Below, piece by piece: positions 51,975-63,971 of a stretch of DNA of 64,000 nt (the first letter of the stretch is position 1; each line of letters starts with the position of its first letter). The notes under the pieces were generated by a model, which was not told the origin of the DNA, searched no databases, and was given only the letters and a program-made list of their open reading frames with translations. The DNA comes from an uncultured bacterium (lineage in GTDB: Bacteria > Planctomycetota > UBA1135 > GCA-002686595). The position numbers were made by a program, and so were the translations under genes. Location: NCBI GenBank assembly GCA_943787795.1, contig CALSNU010000001.1, positions 672,001 through 736,000 on the forward strand. Reading direction: 5' to 3'.

Positions 51975-53897
51975 TCAGAGGTCGACTTCGGTCGCCTCTT
52001 CTGCGCGATCCATGATGAAGCGGAACCGCGCGGAGGGATCCTTGCCCATCAGGTCGTTCATGACCCGATCGGTGACCAGCCCGTCCGCGATCTCGACGCG
52101 GAGCAGTCGGCGCTGAGCCGGGTCGAGGGTCGTCTCCCAGAGCGTGCGGGGCATCATCTCACCGAGGCCCTTGAAGCGGGTGATCGACGGCGTCGAACGC
52201 GCGCTGCCGTGCTCGGAGATGATCCGGTCTCGGTCCGCCTCGTCCGCGGCCCACCAGGTCTCCTTGGCGATGTCCACGCGATAGAGGGGGGGGACCGCGA
52301 TGTACAGGCGGCCGGCCGAGATGAGGCCGGGCAGGTGGCGGTAGAAGAAGGTCAGCAGAAGCGTCGTGATGTGGTGGCCGTCCGAGTCCGCGTCCGCCAG
52401 CAGGATGACCCGCTGGTAGCGGAGCTTGGAGAGGTCGAAGTCCGTCCCGATGCCGCAGCCCAGCGCCGTCAGGAGGTCGGCCAGCTCCTTGTTATCCAGG
52501 ACCTTCTTCAGGCCGGCATCTTCGGTGTTCAGGACCTTCCCGCGCAGCGGGAGAATGGCCTGGAGCGTCCGGTCTCGGCCCTGCTTGGCCGACCCGCCCG
52601 CCGAATCACCCTCGACGATGAAGAGCTCGGAGTTGTCGCGGTTCTTCGTCGAACAGTCAGAGAGCTTGCCGGGGAGCGTCAGGCGGCTGGTAGCGGACTT
52701 TCGAGAGACAGAGGCTGAAGCCGCCCGACTGGCGGCGCGTGCCCGGCTGGCGGCAATGACCCGGGTGATGATCTGCTCGGCGGTGGAGCTGTTCGAGTTC
52801 AGCCACTTCTCGAGGGCCGGCCGCAGGGCGCCATCCACGAGGGCCTGGACCTCAGGATTGTTGAGCCGGTCCTTGGTTTGGCCCTGGAACTGCGGGTCTG
52901 CGATGAAGACGGAGAGGATGCCCAGGATCCCCTCGCGGATGTCTTCGTGCGTGATCTTGACGCCCCGCGGGGTGAGCTTGTGGGTCTCGATGTAGTTCCG
53001 GACCGCCTTGTTGAGCCCGGCACGGAAGCCGTTCTCATGGCTGCCGCCAGAGCTGGTCGTGATCCCGTTGACGTAGCTCCTGACGTGCTCGTCGGTGGAG
53101 TCGGTCCACTGGAAGACCATCTCGACGCGCGCGTCCGCGGTCTCCTTTGCAAGGAAGAACGGCTCCTCATGGATAGGAGAGGCCGAGCGGGACTTGCTGA
53201 CGTCGGCAAGGTAGTCCCGGATCCCGTTCTCGTGTCGGAAGACGGTGCGCTTGCCGGCGACCTCATCCACGAAGACCATCTTCACATTGGAGTGAAGGAA
53301 CGCCGCGGTCTCCAAGCGCTGCTGCAGAGTCTCCGAGTTGAACGTCGTCTTTGGGAAGATCTTCGGGTCAGGCGTGAAGGTGATCGTCGTGCCTGAGCCG
53401 CGGACCTCCTTGTCCTTGGCCTTGAGGAGCTTGGTCGCGGGGACCCCGCGGGCGAAGTCCATCTTGTACTGACCCCCGTCGCGGCGGATCACGGCGGTGA
53501 GCTTCTTGGAGAGGGCGTTGACCACGGACGCGCCGACGCCGTGCAGCCCGCCGGAGGTCTTGTAGTTCCCGTCGCCGTCGTTCTGGAACTTTCCGCCCGC
53601 GTGCAGCTCCGTCAGGACGAGCTCGAGGCCCGACTTCCCGGTCTTCTTGTTCCGGTCGACGGGGATCCCTCGCCCGTTATCGGCGACCGTCACCGTCTCG
53701 CCGGTCTTGTGCAGCGTGAGGGTGATCTCGGTCGCGTGGCCGTTCATGGCCTCGTCCACGGAGTTGTCCAGGACCTCCCACACGAGGTGGTGGAGCCCGG
53801 CGCTGTTGACGCCGCCGATGTACATCCCGGGGCGCTTGCGTACCGCCTCGAGACCCTGGAGGACGGTGAGCTGGTCTGCGGTGTAAGCCTTGGCCAT
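51975..53897 (-). CDS. parE: Type IIA topoisomerase B subunit (topoisomerase IV ParE-like)
   Basis: VRKRPGMYIG, EVLDNSVDE, LHAGGKF, GLHGVG, EGDSAGGS, PLRGK, DADSDG, RFKGLGEM; about 640 aa. Confidence 0.85.
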   Translation of the reverse strand: MAKAYTADQLTVLQGLEAVRKRPGMYIGGVNSAGLHHLVWEVLDNSVDEAMNGHATEITLTLHKTGETVTVADNGRGIPVDRNKKTGKSGLELVLTELHAGGKFQNDGDGNYKTSGGLHGVGASVVNALSKKLTAVIRRDGGQYKMDFARGVPATKLLKAKDKEVRGSGTTITFTPDPKIFPKTTFNSETLQQRLETAAFLHSNVKMVFVDEVAGKRTVFRHENGIRDYLADVSKSRSASPIHEEPFFLAKETADARVEMVFQWTDSTDEHVRSYVNGITTSSGGSHENGFRAGLNKAVRNYIETHKLTPRGVKITHEDIREGILGILSVFIADPQFQGQTKDRLNNPEVQALVDGALRPALEKWLNSNSSTAEQIITRVIAASRARAASRAASASVSRKSATSRLTLPGKLSDCSTKNRDNSELFIVEGDSAGGSAKQGRDRTLQAILPLRGKVLNTEDAGLKKVLDNKELADLLTALGCGIGTDFDLSKLRYQRVILLADADSDGHHITTLLLTFFYRHLPGLISAGRLYIAVPPLYRVDIAKETWWAADEADRDRIISEHGSARSTPSITRFKGLGEMMPRTLWETTLDPAQRRLLRVEIADGLVTDRVMNDLMGKDPSARFRFIMDRAEEATEVDL

Positions 53898-53901
53898 CGT
53901 G

Positions 53902-56382
53902 CTAGAGAGTCGGCGCGCTGACCGGGTCGTGGACGATCTGCTTGATGCGTCCGTTCTTCTGGATCTCAGTCCCGACGCCGCCGCGCGAGGTCGTGCGGTA
54001 CTTGACCGTGGAGATGTTCTTCTGGGCCCCGCGGTTGGTCTCCACCGTGAGCAGGTCTCGGTCCCCGCGGCTCGCCTTGAAGCCCAGCAAGGCGTCGTCC
54101 TTGGCGACCTTGATGAGCTGGACCCCCTTGCCCGGCCCGCCGAGGTAGTTGATCTCCTCCGCGGCGCACACGATCGCTCGGCAGCGCTGGGTGACGGCGA
54201 GGATGGTCTCGCTGCCGTGCAGCTTGAGCGCCCCGATGACGGCCTTGCCGGCGCTCGGCCTTGCGAAGCGCCGGCCAGACCGGGTGGAGGGCTCCTGGAA
54301 CTTGTCGAGGCCGAAGCGGAGGGCATAGCCATCGCTCGTGGCCGCGAAGCCGTGGATCATGGGGCAGGAGTCGGGGCGCTTGGGGTCCTCGGCGATACTG
54401 CCCTTGAGCGTGCGGGGGTCGAATGAGATGACCGCGACGATGCGCTCCCCGTCCTTCAGCTTGAAGAGCTTCTGGATCGGCTCGCCGAATCCCGTTGATG
54501 AGGGGAGGTCCGCGAAGCGGGCGGTGTAGCAGGTGCCTGCGGAGGAGAAGAAACCCACCGTCGCGCGGGTCGATCCGGCCACGCATGCGAGGACGCTATC
54601 TCCGTCGCGGATCCGTGACTTGGACGGCTCCTTGATCTCCTTCTGTCGCTTGACCCAGCCGTCCCGGGTGACGAGCAGGTGGGTGTCCTCGGCGACGATG
54701 AAGTCCTCCTCCGAGTATTCGACCTCCTCGGTCGGGGCCTCGATCACGGTACGGCGCTTGGCCTCCTTGGACTTTCCGAGCTCCTTGAGCACGTCCCGGA
54801 GCTCCTCGCGGACGATGCCCCAGCGTCCGGATGAAGCCGGGTCGCTGTCGTCGTCCCCGAGCAGGCCGCGGATCTCGTCGGCGCGCGTGCGCTTGGCCTC
54901 GAGCTCGTCGAGCACGAGGTTGATCTCGAGCTTGGCGAGCCGGTACAGCTTGAGCTCGAGGATCGCGTCGGTTTGCTCCTCGTCGAGCTGCTTGTACTTC
55001 TTGAGGATCTTCTTGGCCGCATCGGCCTTTCCGCTCGACGCCCGGATGATCCGGATGATGTCGTCGAGGGCGTCGAAGACGAGGGCGAACCCCTCAAGGA
55101 TGTGGATCCGCTTCTCCAGTCCCTGAAGCTCGTTCCGAAGGCGCCGGGTCACGACGTCGAGCCGGAAGTGGAGGAAGTGCCACAGGACCTCCTTCAGGCC
55201 GAGCCGGGACGGGGCGCCCACCTCGGGGTTTTCGGTGGGGACGAGGCAGGTGAGGTTGTAGCTGTAGTTGACCTGCAGGTTGGTGTGCTTGTGGAGGTAC
55301 GCCAGCACCTTCTGCTCGTCCGCGTCCTTCTTGAGGTCCAGCTCGACCCGGATGTCCTCCGCGGACAGGTCGCGGACGTCGAGGATCAGCGCCATCTTGC
55401 GCTGGACGACGATCTGGCCGATCTGCTCCACGAGGGTCGCCTTGTTGACGCCGTAGGGCACGCTCGAGATGACCATCGTCTTCGTGCTGCGCGACTTCAG
55501 CTTGCGGTCGATCACACACGTGCCGCGAATCTTGATGCCACCTGAGCCACTCTTGTAGATCTCGCGCAGCTGCTCCCGCGAGGCGATGACATGCCCGCCG
55601 GTGGGGAAGTCCGGGCCCTGCACGGCATCGTTGGCCACGAGCTGGTAGTCCTTGACCTCCGGGTCCGCCAGCACCTTGAGGCAAGCGGAGATCGTCTCTG
55701 CCATGTTGTGCGGCGGAATGTTGGTGGCCATGCCGACCGCGATCCCCGCGCCGCCGTTGACCAGCAGGTTGGGGTAGCGAGCGGGTAGCACCACCGGCTC
55801 CTCGTTTGTGCCGTCGTAGTTGGGCCGGAAGGGGACCGTGCCGTTTCGGATGTCGTCGAGCAGCGGCAGAGCGGGGGGCGCGAGCCGGCACTCGGTGTAC
55901 CGGTAGGCGGCCGCGGAGTCGCCGTCGATGGAGCCGAAGTTGCCGTGACCGTCCACCAGGTTGTGGCGCATCTGCCACGGCTGCGCCATGCGGACCAGGG
56001 CGTCGTAGAGGGCCGTATCCCCGTGGGGGTGGAAGTCCTTGAGGGCAGCCCCTACGACCCCCGCACACTTGCGGGGTTTCGCGTCCGGGAGCATGCGCTC
56101 GCGGAGCATCGTGTACAGGATCCGGCGCTGTACGGGTTTGAGCCCGTCACGCACGTCCGGGAGGGCTCGGCTCGTGATGACCGATAGCGAGTAGTTGAGG
56201 TAGCGAGCCTGGGCCGCCTCGTGAAGCGCGACCGCCTCCTCACCGTTTCCGGATACGCCGTCGCTGGACCCGCCGTCGCCGCCGGCTCCACCTGAGTCCT
56301 CGAAGAGCCCGGGGGCTGACTCCTTGGATCGTTCGCTGGTCCTTGTTTTCTTCGTCGATCTCGACGTCTTGGTGCGCGCCAC
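53902..56382 (-). CDS. parC: Type IIA topoisomerase A subunit (topoisomerase IV ParC-like)
   Basis: [31 protein letters not shown] active-site Tyr, [14 protein letters not shown]; no canonical GyrA-box seen. Confidence 0.85.
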
Positions 56383-56490
56383 TGGAGGGTCCTCGATGCT
56401 CGCCCGCGCACGCCCGGGGCGGCTCACGCTGGGGAACCCGCGCACGATAGAGGCGCGGGGAGGGCCGTACAACCCCGCGGCGGTCTCGGG

Positions 56491-57866: not shown

Positions 57867-58047
57867 GGCAGCCAGGAGTCTAGCGGTCGAGCCCGCGCAC
57901 GAATCTGTTGAAGGCTGCAACGCCCGGCGGATTGATCCGTCTCGCCCGTGAGGGCCTGAAGGGTCAGCTCGACGGTCCTGGCCTCTCTCGCCCCCAGGGG
58001 GGGCGCCTGGGCCGTGAACTCCGGAGAGCCGTCCCCCGGAGCGCGAC

Positions 58048-58223
58048 GGCTCCGGAATGCGGCGGCTCCGGAATGCGGCGGCTCCGGAATGCGGCGGCCC
58101 CGAAACGCGATGGCCCCGAAACGCGATGGCCTCGAAACGCGATGGCCTCGAAACGCGATGGCCTCGAAACGCGATGGCCTCGAAACGCAATGGCTGAGGA
58201 GCGGGATGGCTCCGAAGCGTGAT
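58048..58223. repeat. 16-bp-period tandem array, 11 units with progressive sequence drift
   Basis: GGCTCCGGAATGCGGC x3, GGCCCCGAAACGCGAT x2, GGCCTCGAAACGCGAT x3, then three degenerate units. Confidence 0.92.
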
Positions 58224-58371
58224 GACCATGGAATACCCGGACCAAGAGAAGTCAGCGATCATGAACTGTCCGCCCCGAGACCAAGTGACGATGAGGCACT
58301 CAGGGTCCGCAAGCGCCCTCCTTGAGCGCCCATGTGGTAAGCCCCACGCCTATGGAGGTTCCGGCCATCGG

Positions 58372-58461
58372 GAGTTCCGGCGTAGAGGACTCCGGGGCAG
58401 TGGCCTCCGGGGCAGTGGCCTCCGGGGCAGTGGCCTCCGGCGCAGGGGCCTCCGGCGCCGG
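58372..58461. repeat. 15-bp tandem repeat (GGCCTCCGGGGCAGT), about 6 copies
   Basis: Units at 58372, 58387, 58402, 58417, 58432 and 58447, immediately upstream of ATG 58465. Confidence 0.85.
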
Positions 58462-58464
58462 GGC

Positions 58465-59925
58465 ATGGTCCGCTGGCGGTGGGCTCTGGCGCTGTGGATC
58501 GCAGCCGTGGCGGGGGCCGGGCTTCAAGCGAGTCCTGGGCCGGGATGGGGGCCTGTACTGGGAGCACTCCTCGGGAGGCACTTCGCCGGCCTCCTGCCAG
58601 CGAGCATCGCCGGGCCGGAGGAGCAGGGACCCCTGGCCCGCCTCGATGGGTGGGCGGACGCCCCGGTCGAACTTGTTCGATCTGCGGCCCGCGGGCGCCC
58701 GCCCGGTCTCGGCGCGGCGGTCTCATTTGCTGCTGCCTCCCCGGGTGGGCCGGTGCTGCTCGGCGCGGCTCCGGCCGGCCTGTCGGCGGGGGTAGGAGGG
58801 CTCGTCCTTGGCGCGGCTCGGGGCGGGCCACAGCAGGGCTGGAGGGTCGGCGGCGCCGGCTCATGGTGGCAAGGGCCTTCCGGCCCCTCTGGCGCGCCGG
58901 GGCTGGAGGGCCCTTCCAGGGGAGATGATGAGCAAGGGCGGGCCATGGCGTCTGCGGTCGGGTGGACAGCCATCGGGGCGCCAAGCGCGCGGCTGGGCGA
59001 GTCACAGGTCGGCGCAGTCACGCTCGTTCACTTCAGCCCCGGAGCAGGCCGTGGAGTGACCACCCAGGTTCTGCGCCCTCCGGCTGGCATGGCCGGGGGA
59101 GGCTTCGGCGCGGCTCTTGCCTTCCTTGAAGCGAGGGGTGAACCCCGAGTGCTGGCGGTCGGCGCTCCGTTTGAGACGGACCCTGTGACAGGGCTGCCGC
59201 TGGTGGGGGCAGTGCACCTGTTCGAGCCGATCGGAGGTGCTGGCGATGCCCGGCTCTCCCGCTGGGGGCTGGTCCAGACCATGCGACCGGAGTCGCCTGG
59301 GATCGGGATGGCGTTCGGAGCCTCCCTCGCCTGGGTCGATGGGGACCTCGCGATCGGTGCCCCGGGTCATGGCAGCCTTGCGCCTGGGGCGGGGAGCGTC
59401 TTCGGGGTCTCGAGGTCCGGGGATCGACTCTGGTCCCTCGGGTCGCCGCAGGCGGGCGCGAGGTTTGGAGCCGCCGTCTGCTCACTGCCCGTGGCGTGGG
59501 GTCCAGGACGGCCCGGCCTCGCGGTGACCGCAGCCGGACGCGGGGTGGTTCATGTGCACGACCTCCTGGCGGGTGCCCCGCAGGTGGTCGCGACGCTTCG
59601 CGGCCGGCCTGGCGGAGGCTTTGGGCTCGCGCTGGCTGCGGTCGGGGAGCAGCTCCTGGTCGGGGCGCCGTTCGAAGGCGTGGGGGGGGTCCCGCTTGCC
59701 GGGCATGTCCAGCGCTTCCTCGCGGGTCGAGGTGAGGAGGCTGTCGAGACGCTCTCCGCGCCGTCGCCGACGATCGGTGGGGAGTTCGGGGTGTCCCTTG
59801 CGGCCTCTCGAGGGCGCGATGGCGTCCACTGGCTCGCTGTAGGCGAGCCGGGGAGTCATCACGGCTGCGATTCGATCCGCTCGAGCTGCCGCCCGGGTCG
59901 GGTCGCTGTCTTCGTGCTGCCGTGA
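58465..59925 (+). CDS. FG-GAP / integrin-alpha-like beta-propeller protein, exported
   Basis: Repeated FG..LA...LAVGAP....G.V motifs and a signal-like leader. Confidence 0.8.
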   Translation: MVRWRWALALWIAAVAGAGLQASPGPGWGPVLGALLGRHFAGLLPASIAGPEEQGPLARLDGWADAPVELVRSAARGRPPGLGAAVSFAAASPGGPVLLGAAPAGLSAGVGGLVLGAARGGPQQGWRVGGAGSWWQGPSGPSGAPGLEGPSRGDDEQGRAMASAVGWTAIGAPSARLGESQVGAVTLVHFSPGAGRGVTTQVLRPPAGMAGGGFGAALAFLEARGEPRVLAVGAPFETDPVTGLPLVGAVHLFEPIGGAGDARLSRWGLVQTMRPESPGIGMAFGASLAWVDGDLAIGAPGHGSLAPGAGSVFGVSRSGDRLWSLGSPQAGARFGAAVCSLPVAWGPGRPGLAVTAAGRGVVHVHDLLAGAPQVVATLRGRPGGGFGLALAAVGEQLLVGAPFEGVGGVPLAGHVQRFLAGRGEEAVETLSAPSPTIGGEFGVSLAASRGRDGVHWLAVGEPGSHHGCDSIRSSCRPGRVAVFVLP

Positions 59926-60071
59926 TCGAGTCGGAGGATCGCGATGAGGCTGGCCCGGCCCGGCGGCTTCGCCTTGACCGGGGCCCGATCGTAGGAACTC
60001 GACCACCTGACCTTGATCAGAGGGGCATGCGCTGGGGATGAGCCGCCGGCAAAGGGCATGGGCCAGCTCGA

Positions 60072-60899
60072 TCAGCGCCCGGTTCGCCGGATGGCCAAGA
60101 GGGTCATGTCGTCCGCCTTTCCCAGCTGATGAGAGCGGGAGCGCGAGGTCATTGACCGCCGCATCCTCTCGGAGCACAGATCTGTCAGGCGAGCCGTCGC
60201 CGCGGGGAGGGGGCCGGACCGGAGGCAGTCGACGACCTCGGACTGCCGCACATTGTCGGTCACTCCGTCGGTGGCGATGAGCGCCGTGTCCCCGCGCCTC
60301 AGGTCCATGCGAGGTCCGAGGTGGACGGACATGGACGCGACACCTAGCCCGTTGGAGACGAGGTGTCGTTCGGGGTGGGCCAGGGCTTGCTCCTCTTCAA
60401 TCAGGCCCCGTTGGAGCGCGCGACCCACCGGGGAGTGCGCTGGCGTGCGATACCGGCACGTCCCGTCGCTGGCGAGAATCATCACCTCCGCGTCTCCGGA
60501 GTGGAGCGTCTGGACCCGGTCGCCGCAAATGACCGCGCCTGCGATCGTGGCGCCGCCACCGGGATAGCGCTCCAGCACCTGGGCGTGGGCCTGCCGGACG
60601 GCCCGAATTGCCCTCTGGATCGGAGACCCCAGGTCCGTCGGCCGAGCGAGCTCCTCGGCAATGGTTGTGGCCGAGAGTCGTGCGACCTTGGCTCCGGACG
60701 CCATGCCTCCCATCCCGTCGATCGCGAATCCGATGAGCCCCTGTTCGCCCTCGGCGCCGAGGAAGGCCGAGTCCTCTCCATCGGCGCGGGCGGGGGAGGA
60801 GAGGCAGACCCAGCAGACCTCGAAGGGTCCGAGGGTGGCTTGCTTCACCGGAGCAGCGACCGCGCAGGGCTCGGGGAAGATGATCTCTGTCCAGCTCAT
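60072..60899 (-). CDS. PP2C-family Ser/Thr protein phosphatase
   Basis: GEDS, IDGMGG, HSGDA, HPERH, ATDGV, DDMT. Confidence 0.88.
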   Translation of the reverse strand: MSWTEIIFPEPCAVAAPVKQATLGPFEVCWVCLSSPARADGEDSAFLGAEGEQGLIGFAIDGMGGMASGAKVARLSATTIAEELARPTDLGSPIQRAIRAVRQAHAQVLERYPGGGATIAGAVICGDRVQTLHSGDAEVMILASDGTCRYRTPAHSPVGRALQRGLIEEEQALAHPERHLVSNGLGVASMSVHLGPRMDLRRGDTALIATDGVTDNVRQSEVVDCLRSGPLPAATARLTDLCSERMRRSMTSRSRSHQLGKADDMTLLAIRRTGR

Positions 60900-61005
60900 C
60901 GTGGGGTCGGCTCGGGGCCTCTGCGCCTCGCGCCAGACGGCGAAGTCGGCTGCGGTCTCCACGGCCGAAGGGGGCGCTCCGGTGCGGCCCGTTTGGATCT
61001 GAAGG

Positions 61006-62067
61006 TCAGCGCTCGGTGAGGACGGTGGACACGTTGAAGACCCGCCCGTCACGCCACAGGCGAACGGTCGTCGGCTCCTCTGGGGAGGCCTCGATGAGGG
61101 AGTTCGTGAAGCTCTGGGAGTCGGTGAGCTCGCGGGAGCCCACGGCCAACAGGATGTCGCCTTCCTTGATCTTGGCGGAGTCCGCGGGTGTGTCTGGATA
61201 GACCGACCGGACCTTGACCACGCTTCGCCCGGTGTACCCCGCCTCGCGATCGGCACGAAGCGACCGGCCAACCTCCCAGCGGGAGAAGGTGCCCACGCCG
61301 AGGTAGGCGCGCCTCACGCGCCCATGGGCAGCGATCTCGTCAACGACCTTGCGGACGATGGACGCAGGGATCGCGAACGCGAGCCCCTCGTCTCCATTGG
61401 AGGCGAGGCCCACGGCGACGGTGATCCCCACCGCTCGGCCCTCCACATCAACGAGCGGGCCGCCGCTGTTCCCTGGGTTGATCGCGGCGTCCGTCTGGAT
61501 GTAGTTCTCGTACTCGGCGATGTCGAGGTTGTTGCGGCCGTGCCCGTTCACGACGCCGAGCGTCACGGTGTGGCCGAGGCTCAGGGGGTTCCCGACCGCG
61601 AGCACAAGCTCCCCGACGGGCGGGAGCTCGGTGCGCAGGGCCATCGGTGAGAATTCCCGCTCGCCAGCGATCTTGAGGACCGCGAGATCGGTGGACTCGT
61701 CCGAACCCAGGAGCTCGGCATCGCAGCGCTCGCCGCTGGTGAAGACCACCCGGAAGGCGGTCGCACCGGTGATCACATGGTGGTTGGTGACCACGAGCCC
61801 TGACGAGTCGATGACCACGCCCGAACCGTCGAGAATCTTCCTCAGGCGACCGCGGCTCCTTCGGAAGGATTCCACCTGAACCACGGACCGGGCAGCGTCA
61901 GCGCTCGCGGTCTGGAGGGCCTGCGAGACCTGTGCGGCGGCCTGGCGCGGGTCCAGGTCGGTCTGTGGATACCGCTGCCCGAGACCAAACGCCGCGGCAA
62001 TGAGGCCTGCGGCGGCGGAGGCGAGGCCGAGGGTGCCGATCTGGGGGCGCCGTTGGGAGTGACTCAT
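61006..62067 (-). CDS. HtrA/DegS-like serine protease with one PDZ domain
   Basis: GSGVVI, TNHHV, TDLAVLK, AINPGNSGGP, RAYLGV...PDZ; N-terminal anchor. Confidence 0.93.
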   Translation of the reverse strand: MSHSQRRPQIGTLGLASAAAGLIAAAFGLGQRYPQTDLDPRQAAAQVSQALQTASADAARSVVQVESFRRSRGRLRKILDGSGVVIDSSGLVVTNHHVITGATAFRVVFTSGERCDAELLGSDESTDLAVLKIAGEREFSPMALRTELPPVGELVLAVGNPLSLGHTVTLGVVNGHGRNNLDIAEYENYIQTDAAINPGNSGGPLVDVEGRAVGITVAVGLASNGDEGLAFAIPASIVRKVVDEIAAHGRVRRAYLGVGTFSRWEVGRSLRADREAGYTGRSVVKVRSVYPDTPADSAKIKEGDILLAVGSRELTDSQSFTNSLIEASPEEPTTVRLWRDGRVFNVSTVLTER

Positions 62068-62393
62068 GGGAGCTTGGGACGAAATGGAGCGCGTTGTCTC
62101 GCCCGCTTACATTCCTCTTATAGCGTGCCATCGGGTCTTGGATGCGTTCCTGCATTCTTGGTCCAGATCGCTTACTCTCAACGTACGCCAACAATCGATG
62201 GCGCGGCCGTACCGACTAAGGGTGTTCCCCACGTCCTGGCGCAGATCCGATCCCGATCGGAGATGTGCTCCGACTGGAGACCGTTGCCTCCATCGGCCCC
62301 TTCCCTCAACAGTCTGCCCCTCAGCCACCTCGATAGAGCCCTCACCGCGGCAACTCTCGCCCCGGCGTCCTATCGATGAACCACCGACCTCCC

Positions 62394-63971
62394 ATGAAGT
62401 TCTTCATCAACAGCCTCTCCGCGCTCGCGCTGCTGATCGCTTTCAGCGCCGCACCCGCCCAAGCTCAAGAATGTCCGGCCGCAGCTGCCAAGGCCGCGGT
62501 GCAGAGCTCGACCTGCTGCGCCGCCACCTCTCGCGCCGCGGTCGTCGCCGCCAAGCCGGCGAAGAGTGAGTGCTGCCAGGAAGCGAAGGCCCAGACGGCC
62601 GCCGCGAAGAGCGAGTGCTGCTCGGAGACCAAGGCGAAGGCTGCGACCGTGGCGGTGAAGAAGAGCGACTGTGGCTCGACCTGCCCGACGACCAAGGCCG
62701 CCGTCGTGACCGCCAAGCCCGCAAAGAGCGAGTGCTGCCAGGAAGCGAAGGCCCAGACGGCCGCCGCAAAGAGCGAGTGCTGCTCGGAGACCAAGGCTGC
62801 TGTCGTGGCTGCGAAGCCCGCAAAGAGCGAGTGCTGCTCCGCGAACAAGGCGAAGGCCGCGACCGTGGCGGTGAAGAAGAGCGACTGCGGCTCGACCTGC
62901 CCGACGACCAAGGCCGCCGTCGTGGCCGCGAAGCCCGCGAAGAGCGAGTGCTGCCAGGAAGCAAAGGCCCAAACGGCCGCCGCGAAGAGCGAGTGCTGCT
63001 CGGAGACCAAGGCTGCCGTCGTGGCTGCGAAGCCCGCGAAGAGCGAGTGCTGCCAGGAAGCGAAGGCCCAGACGGCCGCCGCGAAGAGCGAGTGCTGCTC
63101 GGAGACCAAGGCCGCCGTCGTGGCCGCGAAGCCTGCGAAGAGCGAGTGCTGCCAGGAAGCGAAGGCCCAGACGGCCGCCGCGAAGAGCGAGTGCTGCTCG
63201 GAGACCAAGGCTGCTGTCGTGGCTGCGAAGCCCGCGAAGAGCGAGTGCTGCCAGGAAGCGAAGGCCCAGACGGCCGCCGCGAAGAGCGAGTGCTGCTCGG
63301 AGACCAAGGCTGCCGTCGTGGCTGCGAAGCCCGCGAAGAGCGAGTGCTGCCAGGAAGCGAAGGCCCAGACGGCCGCCGCGAAGAGCGAGTGCTGCTCGGA
63401 GACCAAGGCCGCCGTCGTGGCCGCGAAGCCCGCGAAGAGCGAGTGCTGCCTCGAGTCCAAGGCCGCCAAGGCCGGGCAGGTCGTCGAGTGTGACTCGGCC
63501 TGCGCCAGCGAGAAGGCTTCGACCGTGGCCGCCAAGCCGGTGAAGAGCGAGTGCTGCTCGGAGACCAAGGCCGCGACCGTGGCTGCCAAGCCGGCCAAGA
63601 GCGAGTGCTGCTCCGAGACCCAGCCGAAGGCTGCGACCGTCGCCGTCACGAAGAGCGATTGCGGCTCGACGTGCCCGACGGCGAAGGCCGCCGTCGTGGC
63701 TGCGAAGCCCGCGAAGGTCGAGTGCTGCTCGACCGAGAAGGCCGCCACCGTGGCTGCCAAGCCGGCCAAGAGCGAGTGCTGCCAGGCCGCCAAGGCTCAG
63801 ACCGTGGCTGCGAAGAGCGAGTGCTGCGCCGCATCCAAGGAGAAGGCCGCGACCGTGGCCGCCAAGCCGGTGAAGAGCCAGTGCTGCTCGGAGACCAAGG
63901 GCAAGGCGACGACCGTGGCGAGCAAGGTGGTCGAGACCTGCTGCGAGTCGAAGTCCGCCGACAAGAACTGA
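62394..63971 (+). CDS. Secreted cysteine-rich tandem-repeat protein ('KSECC' repeats), function unknown
   Basis: Sec signal MKFFINSLSALALLIAFSAAPAQA; 24 CC pairs, 4 CxxxC motifs and 1 lone Cys. The 99-bp repeat copies differ at synonymous positions. Confidence 0.85.
   Translation: MKFFINSLSALALLIAFSAAPAQAQECPAAAAKAAVQSSTCCAATSRAAVVAAKPAKSECCQEAKAQTAAAKSECCSETKAKAATVAVKKSDCGSTCPTTKAAVVTAKPAKSECCQEAKAQTAAAKSECCSETKAAVVAAKPAKSECCSANKAKAATVAVKKSDCGSTCPTTKAAVVAAKPAKSECCQEAKAQTAAAKSECCSETKAAVVAAKPAKSECCQEAKAQTAAAKSECCSETKAAVVAAKPAKSECCQEAKAQTAAAKSECCSETKAAVVAAKPAKSECCQEAKAQTAAAKSECCSETKAAVVAAKPAKSECCQEAKAQTAAAKSECCSETKAAVVAAKPAKSECCLESKAAKAGQVVECDSACASEKASTVAAKPVKSECCSETKAATVAAKPAKSECCSETQPKAATVAVTKSDCGSTCPTAKAAVVAAKPAKVECCSTEKAATVAAKPAKSECCQAAKAQTVAAKSECCAASKEKAATVAAKPVKSQCCSETKGKATTVASKVVETCCESKSADKN
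62912..63449 (+). repeat. 99-bp (33-aa) coding tandem repeat, five full copies plus a partial one
   Basis: CCAGGAAG recurs at 62954, 63053, 63152, 63251 and 63350; unit AAVVAAKPAKSECCQEAKAQTAAAKSECCSETK. Confidence 0.93.

Follow-up and report, generated by a model that had tools for sequence, protein, structure and literature searches.

The window analyzed here is a stretch of 64,000 nucleotides from an uncultured planctomycete (assembly GCA_943787795.1, contig CALSNU010000001.1, positions 672,001 to 736,000, forward strand), and close to its end it carries a gene for a low-complexity repeat protein rich in cysteine, alanine, and lysine. We refer to this protein as P0001 and to its genome as G000; other G and L numbers denote other genomes and loci. 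Judged from its homologs, P0001 is a member of an uncurated family conserved in the lineage of Saltatorellus ferox. The sequence evidence establishes the gene, its signal-like N terminus, the repeats of two cysteines plus a KA-x-x-V-[AS] segment, how freely the number of repeats varies, and the placement opposite htrA; export, oxidation, self-association, and location are what we infer. The reading that fits best, which we consider plausible and put forward tentatively, is that the family forms a Sec-exported, disordered poly-cysteine polymer, a soft structural material linked by disulfides in the periplasm, envelope, or matrix.

The repeat gene and its product

The open reading frame (ORF) at 62394..63971 of the plus strand codes for 525 residues plus a stop, and it is a real protein gene. 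It stands alone, flanked by a divergent HtrA protease gene and an ABC ATPase gene, and across the alignment its frame starts with a conserved methionine and a signal peptide, followed by glutamine. Among 11 metagenome loci, two that match the window at about 98% identity carry the 5' and 3' portions of the gene, which is therefore not an assembly artifact. Contigs from four RNA runs of two studies span the leader and the start of the gene, and patchily also neighboring genes and intergenic DNA (region compared, 59600-62680); they carry no level or strand information and, as DNA carry-over is possible, are not proof of transcription. A terminator scan found none, though a hairpin rich in guanine plus cytosine (G+C) folds just beyond the end of the window.

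The first 24 residues (62394..62465, plus strand) form a predicted Sec signal peptide cleaved by signal peptidase I at AQA|Q. The peptide was called by eye and from the alignment, with a helix at residues 2 to 18 of the AlphaFold2 model, and export is a prediction; the AQA|QEC site proposed in a preliminary description of this sequence found support to that extent. There is no twin-arginine motif, the mature chain begins with glutamine, and in 18 aligned N termini M1 and Q25 are invariant. A lipoprotein identity was rejected because there is no lipobox, Cys27 being preceded by A-Q-E.

The mature chain (62466..63968, plus strand) opens with a single cysteine at residue 27 and continues with 28 two-cysteine knots, 24 of them CC and four CxxxC (CGSTC at residues 93, 165, and 423 and CDSAC at 366), joined by linkers of the KA-x-x-V-A type. 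A recount returned exactly the 57 cysteines of the preliminary description, and its remarks on composition held as well: the residues from QEC onward, 501 in all, are free of F, W, Y, H, and M, and the knots, which it had placed every 15 to 20 residues or so between Ala/Lys spacers, recur mostly every 15 to 21. No comparable number of CC pairs in a K/A-rich context was found elsewhere in the 4.7-Mb genome (27 frames with at least three CC). Part of the chain is encoded by a recent tandem array of 99 bp (62906..63450, plus strand; 5.5 copies, 96% matches in Tandem Repeats Finder). As had been noted before, the encoded peptide, a 33-mer, is the same in all five full copies, whose six variable sites are all synonymous third positions, with a P value of about 1e-4 if the sites are assumed to be independent (65 of the 297 possible single-base changes are synonymous). 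In the AlphaFold2 model, residues 2 to 18 are the only helix and the chain past it is disordered, with a mean predicted local distance difference test (pLDDT) of 39; P0001 is predicted to be exported and intrinsically disordered. A beta-solenoid or antifreeze-like fold was sought in this model and in that of the G055 relative and was predicted in neither.

The earlier statement that no named family fits P0001 still stands. The only Pfam match, Galaxin_repeat, scored 17.8 bits, below the cutoff of 28, no Pfam metallothionein model matched at an E value of ≤1, and NCBIfam returned no match (none to metallothionein at an E value of ≤10). No PDB sequence matched P0001, and a Foldseek search with the G055 model gave no match at an E value of ≤0.001. 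In a set of 5.8 billion proteins, a single-sequence search scored 0 of 7,996 candidates despite the existence of close homologs, because low complexity defeats this kind of search. A profile search for longer or fused forms returned 1 hit of 7,998, itself a plain family member, and a search of 1.84 billion representatives gave nine matches, all to the same kind of protein. The best feature scores in the ESM Atlas (0.77 to 0.81) fell below the reliability bar of 0.9 and belonged to unnamed clusters, some mostly of Bacteroidota or Acidobacteriota, while NCBIfam on 25 family members picked eight scattered and unrelated families, each in one or two members, which we take as compositional. We found no paper describing the family, most subscription papers lying outside full-text reach, and the word "cysteine" is absent from the main texts of 10.1101/817700 and 10.64898/2026.10.26.761892, whose supplements, outside our scope, could list the gene. 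Such a family is easily missed, as the single-sequence search scored none of it, short-read assemblies break at it, and a codon-based caller preferred the antisense frame.

Range, conservation, and locus of the family

The window genome belongs to the genus of S. ferox (about 70% G+C), and the complete chromosome of S. ferox Poly30 carries an ortholog, being one of the 12 loci obtained when named genomes were scanned. Matches were present in all 17 other genomes of the genus (in 11 of which the gene runs off the end of a contig), in 20 of the 24 in the family, and, elsewhere in the order, in 2 of 16 genomes from other families. Profile searches, which covered Planctomycetota genomes only, matched 25 of 108 and later 35 of 112 genomes of the family, both genomes of family f5, and none of 107 genomes drawn from eight further families of the class; a broad profile matched 13 of 401 genomes across the phylum. 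These searches undercount, because reading from HtrA outward revealed the repeat gene in genomes they had missed: 24 of the 30 best HtrA loci in the family have an opposite gene with a signal peptide and Cys/Ala-rich repeats. Of the 13 genomes matched by the broad profile, G644 was spurious, and two from one family outside the order, G588 and G284, have the repeat gene again opposite an HtrA homolog; G259, G275, and G625 contain similar repeats in other gene contexts. Rows dropped from the comparison were G022 (no Cys-rich frame), G003 (no frame past the filter), and L093, L213, L214, and G644 (wrong-frame or unrelated).

The mapping of homologs, repeat number, and neighbors suggested in the preliminary description has thus turned up a lineage-wide family with htrA opposite. 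The 19 complete proteins have mature lengths of 156 to 512 residues, cysteine contents of 6.4 to 11.5%, and net charges of -29 to +31, and they are poor in histidine, methionine, and aromatic residues. This span of charge led us to reject a polycation (AlgP/histone-like) role as a family property. Neighboring cysteines are spaced by 1 (144 times), 4 (62), 5 (11), 6 (43), or 7 (27) residues; together, CxC and CxxC occur once (one CxC, zero CxxC), against 104 in shuffles (minimum, 77), the distant G625 protein with its four CxxC being the exception. The cysteine count is even in 14 of the 19; of the five with an odd count, three, P0001 among them, are closely related. The repeat unit consists of two cysteines and then a KA-x-x-V-[AS] segment, a pattern chosen after inspection of the sequences and found in 175 of 319 linkers against 5.4 when shuffled; it is weak or absent in G028, G036, G050, and G058.

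The vicinal 'KSECC' pairs that had been taken as the hallmark of the protein did not prove to be a hallmark of its family. By comparison with its relatives, this is one lineage's local version of the repeat and not a family-defining one, because the relatives vary the type of knot and share the unit of two cysteines plus KA-x-x-V-[AS]: the complete proteins of G008 use CxxxC, those of G055 and G179 use Cx5C, and that of G497 uses Cx6C without any CC. Cysteine-free amphipathic stretches are added in G055, G136, G141, G152, G497, G588, and G284, and in the AlphaFold2 model of G055 two long helices (residues 70-116 and 453-517; pLDDT of the helix block mostly 81-96) flank the disordered repeats. 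Two loci, L206 and L022, combine one and the same N terminus with repeat units in different order and number, which suggests repeat variation within a species or a difference of assembly. L091 carries the planctomycete repeat gene under the title of a Paracoccaceae bacterium, a label that may be wrong.

The conserved neighbor of the family is the divergent gene for an HtrA-type protease with trypsin and PDZ domains (61006..62067, minus strand; Pfam and synteny), which lies opposite the repeat gene in 15 of the 18 loci that contain its 5' end. Between both genes, an alignment of 18 upstream sequences revealed a block conserved across the genus (62117..62186; CTTATAGC ... TGGATGC ... GCTTAC-N6-CGTAC) that includes a TAC-N7-GTA dyad and overlaps a sigma70-like match of 9/12 on the minus strand. 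The GCTTAC-N6/7-GTAC pattern occurs only once in the genome, in this block, which is probably a shared promoter or operator region.

A proposed disulfide-linked polymer and its alternatives

In the mechanism that we propose, the P0001 chain would cross the inner membrane unfolded through Sec, and its thiols would be oxidized, plausibly by a MauE(CGC)-CxxC fusion protein or by O2 or metal, with disulfides being reshuffled through DsbD. The cysteine pairs would then close small loops or bridge chains, and the linker segments, together with the long amphipathic helices of some relatives, could gather the chains into an extensible mesh that HtrA would turn over. In function, such a polymer would correspond to the YTV wall proteins of the class Planctomycetia and to chlamydial OmcA/OmcB, being homologous to neither.

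Several observations support this polymer reading. The locus with htrA is fixed and conserved, reaching G588 and G284 outside the order, and cysteine density is constant while length, charge, and knot type vary, with CxC/CxxC nearly absent and an even cysteine count in most complete proteins. The non-cysteine linker is conserved, and relatives have amphipathic helical inserts. The 46 neighboring ORFs scanned with Pfam at 11 loci contain no metal pump or regulator, MauE genes and DsbD are present, and the YTV proteins are a precedent. Genes of the MauE family occur in 26 of the 31 genomes of the order, and in G000 and S. ferox their product combines a CGCFG motif with a fused C-terminal CxxC domain (G000:C1:1188861-1189934, minus strand, and L164; C-terminal motif CEVC, conserved in S. 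ferox). MauE can replace DsbB according to 10.64898/2026.03.05.709764; on the basis of its motifs, this fusion is a candidate noncanonical disulfide-forming enzyme of the lineage.

With regard to known systems, P0001 fails the membership tests for the YTV, OmcA/B, and galaxin families as far as sequence comparison goes, and its family is best filed, by analogy, alongside the Cys-rich structural envelope proteins of the Planctomycetes-Verrucomicrobia-Chlamydiae (PVC) superphylum, analogous and not homologous to YTV and OmcA/B. OmcA and OmcB are exported Cys-rich PVC proteins that are cross-linked by disulfides in the chlamydial envelope, OmcA being a small lipoprotein and OmcB not being an Ala/Lys low-complexity repeat. 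P0001 shares with them the superphylum and the richness in cysteine, its export being predicted only, and differs in lacking a lipobox and any Pfam or NCBIfam profile match; moreover, Chlamydia has a DsbA/DsbB pair, whereas such a pair was not found in the host of P0001. YTV proteins (PF07639) are Cys-rich repeat proteins that score at the top in planctomycete wall preparations, have been proposed to tune wall rigidity, and are reported, in the available text of PMC8567305, PMC12673574, and PMC10632474, from Planctomycetales/Planctomycetia alone. P0001 comes from the same phylum and is also a Cys-rich repeat protein, but it has no tyrosine, lacks the YTV motif, and does not match PF07639, and its family is centered on the Saltatorellus family; a search for YTV genes in G000 gave no matches, with control queries equally silent. 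The galaxins of the coral matrix have a signal peptide and 30-residue tandem dicysteine repeats with about 12 to 13% cysteine and a proposed structural role (PMC2726143). Signal peptide and tandem dicysteine repeats are shared with galaxin (PF24748), which is nevertheless eukaryotic and built on 30-residue repeats; its match to P0001 looks compositional because the score is under the cutoff and the CC-rich S. ferox ortholog has no galaxin match at an E value of ≤0.5.

A number of results weigh against the polymer reading, and the evidence on thiol oxidation is mixed. The C-terminal domain of the MauE fusion is defined by its CxxC motif only, a thioredoxin fold not being established, and the part of the MauE paper available (10.64898/2026.03.05.709764) does not mention planctomycetes. 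In G000 (85% complete), neither DSBA nor Thioredoxin_4 gave a match; the single-contig genome G012 yielded no DSBA and no DsbB, and VKOR was found in none of the 31 genomes of the order. DSBA matches exist in three of five other genomes, G012 not among them; a stand-alone DsbB-family gene is found in G000 (C6:514230-514921, plus strand, preceded by a 50-residue membrane peptide and a cation-efflux-like gene), with a DsbB match in none of five other genomes. Nor is there an excess of even cysteine counts in a crude set of G000 signal-peptide proteins (143 of 351, or 0.41, against a null of 0.46 ± 0.025), also after removal of lipoproteins and heme motifs (104 of 256, against 0.45 in cytoplasmic proteins). 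No ordered repeat fold is predicted (pLDDT of 39 in P0001 and below 50 in the G055 repeats), the codon use of the gene is mildly ribosomal-like (89th percentile of 2,768 genes), and by profile search the distribution of the gene is patchy. Cross-linking would be limited where dicysteines form loops within one chain, as they may do (PMC2726143). A stiff wall role is unlikely because Saltatorellus cells are described as fragile and as having peptidoglycan (10.1101/817700).

Besides envelope cross-linking, which is the option that fits best, the preliminary description had proposed an exported metallothionein-like sponge, in which the thiols would stay reduced and the chain would fold round thiolate clusters of Cu(I), Zn, or Cd and so store metal, or detoxify it, outside the cytoplasm. 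This is now weakened, and we regard it as unlikely, because the locus is fixed and of a housekeeping type, no metal pump or regulator is found among the 46 neighbors, and the linker motif and the coiled-coil-like inserts, superfluous for a sponge, are conserved or recurrent. Metallothionein cysteines are typically clustered as CxC or CxxC. P0001 resembles the bacterial metallothioneins (SmtA/BmtA, MymT, and PmtA) in being Cys-rich and, by prediction, disordered, but it is about 10 times longer, has a Sec signal, no CxC/CxxC, and no histidine, lacks methionine as well, and sits in no metal-regulator context; the avoidance of these two spacings extends to the family, G625 excepted, and no metallothionein model of Pfam matches. 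For the sponge speak the lack of both a canonical DsbA/DsbB pair and an even-cysteine bias, owing to which exported thiols might stay reduced, the presence of DsbD, and the YHS domains of one of the 46 neighbors. In G275, moreover, a similar repeat precedes an unclassified domain of repeated Y-x-V-G...CC units that we take to recall YHS/TRASH metal sites, which Pfam did not confirm. About 10% cysteine, almost no aromatic residues, and disorder in the absence of a ligand are features of metallothioneins, which fold only upon binding metal (PMC7558416), and a bacterial metallothionein has been detected on the cell surface (PMC11237414). Csp1, an exported periplasmic Cu storage protein, uses the twin-arginine translocation (Tat) pathway (PMC7558416), in contrast to the Sec-type signal of P0001, which has no arginine and no Tat motif; nor does P0001 have a helix past residue 18 or a four-helix bundle. 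Should P0001 prove to be a metal binder, it would count as a metallothionein-like protein of unusual size, exported by Sec.

The pairing with htrA, the most conserved feature of the family and one that extends to a family of another order, could also point to a disordered periplasmic stress protein, either a holdase-type chaperone or a sacrificial substrate or sensor, coregulated from the intergenic region and cleaved by HtrA. The conserved intergenic block and the disordered, Lys/Ala-rich chain fit this idea, and Asr, a disordered periplasmic chaperone of Escherichia coli, offers an analogy. It would, however, leave the strict rule of two cysteines per repeat unexplained, net charge switches sign between orthologs, and G028, G036, and two low-G+C genomes (G278 and G217) carry a repeat gene without an adjacent htrA match, so that we find this role quite unlikely. 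We judge as improbable a periplasmic or surface thiol redox buffer, whose cysteine pairs would cycle between dithiol and small-loop disulfide as they take up oxidants or reactive sulfur, with DsbD recharging them. Thiol density is indeed constant whatever the spacing, DsbD is present, and dicysteines can form loops (PMC2726143); yet the redox-typical CxxC spacing is avoided, the 46 neighbors scanned include neither a peroxiredoxin nor a thioredoxin gene, and helical inserts and linker motif would have no explanation. Last, it is extremely improbable that the sense frame encodes no protein and is the shadow of an antisense gene or an artifact of repeat assembly: our home-made codon-based caller did score the antisense frame above the sense one, and the antisense frame aligned to P0001 is open across the whole gene in G000, but the sense frame, with the conserved signal peptide at its start, is alone in being open in all of 21 homologous spans (picked as open sense frames, a choice that this count partly reflects; codon-aligned antisense, 12 of 21; remaining frames, at most 3), and the independent contigs at 98% identity and the synonymous differences between repeat copies also oppose it.

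Envelope deformation and accompanying genes

The shape change of Saltatorellus-clade cells within a diderm envelope is unexplained, and Cys-rich wall proteins are otherwise reported from Planctomycetia only. A broader version of the polymer reading, which we consider quite unlikely as a whole, would see in the family a disordered disulfide gel, switchable by redox state, within the envelope of shape-shifting Planctomycetota, replacing YTV in the Saltatorellus clade, oxidized by MauE-type proteins instead of DsbA/DsbB, trimmed by HtrA, and with a counterpart in two low-G+C genomes. These genomes, G278 and G217, both on a single contig and of one genus, code for a protein that is either anchored in the membrane or exported and that has CC knots and linkers of the KATTVA type; it had no match in the other 29 genomes of the same search. 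They may belong to the prey-engulfing genus "Candidatus Uabimicrobium" (PMC11481906); the class of that genus has been placed, together with "Candidatus Nanovoracia," as sister to the Saltatorellus clade (10.64898/2026.10.26.761892). The G278/G217, G259, and G275 proteins beat 150 shuffles each, yet reversed sequences score 20 to 28 bits against 2 to 30 for the real ones, so that homology is not established, because the reversed control cannot separate it from periodic composition. A directional motif count, with a pattern set post hoc, gave 7 forward against 0 reversed for G278, 6 against 0 for G217, and 18 against 15 for P0001. If both lineages share the polymer, it would be a candidate for the deformable envelope of Saltatorellus-clade and low-G+C cells, and, if the gel reading is true, the first concrete candidate for combining envelope integrity with amoeba-like deformation. 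The ortholog in the cultured S. ferox Poly30 makes the envelope question testable without genetics.

The 46 neighboring ORFs code for HtrA, menaquinone synthesis, RluA, flavin mononucleotide reductase, peptidases, two sigma-70-family factors, and one YHS/cytochrome protein, eight being without a family; also sought and not found among them were metal efflux pumps, heavy-metal-associated (HMA) proteins, and MerR/ArsR regulators. Apart from HtrA, the neighbor that recurs among the 11 loci is a dynamin-like GTPase, whose gene in G055 and G136 is the next one downstream of the repeat gene (L140:4972-6903 and L136:4263-6080), with a distant homolog after the repeat gene in G028 (L046:3967-6012; 30% identity over 297 residues); in G000 it lies away from the repeat gene (C3:279879-281099). 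Upstream of htrA, by eye, a pair of topoisomerase II/gyrase-like A and B genes (window positions 51975-56472, minus strand) is part of a block conserved in the genus, and a poorly coding stretch upstream of a menaquinone-synthesis gene contains tandem repeats of 16 and 15 bp (58034-58224 and 58376-58458).

Other Cys-rich exported proteins were observed along with P0001. The domain of repeated Y-x-V-G...C units seen in G275 (L192:913-2409) characterizes an unclassified exported family (P0014-P0018) with a Cys-rich, low-complexity N terminus, for which Pfam gave no match at cutoff. G000 also codes for a small acidic exported protein with 11 cysteines in about 77 mature residues (C2:688265-688588, minus strand), more metallothionein-sized than P0001 and with a CxxxCC knot at its end, preceded by an AQVA linker, and for an exported protein whose repeated units, presumably YHS-like, contain several CCxxC motifs (C1:1329508-1330428, plus strand). 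In a further exported protein (C1:177062-178012, plus strand), whose start looks fasciclin-like to us, a single copy of the repeat unit directly follows the signal peptide.

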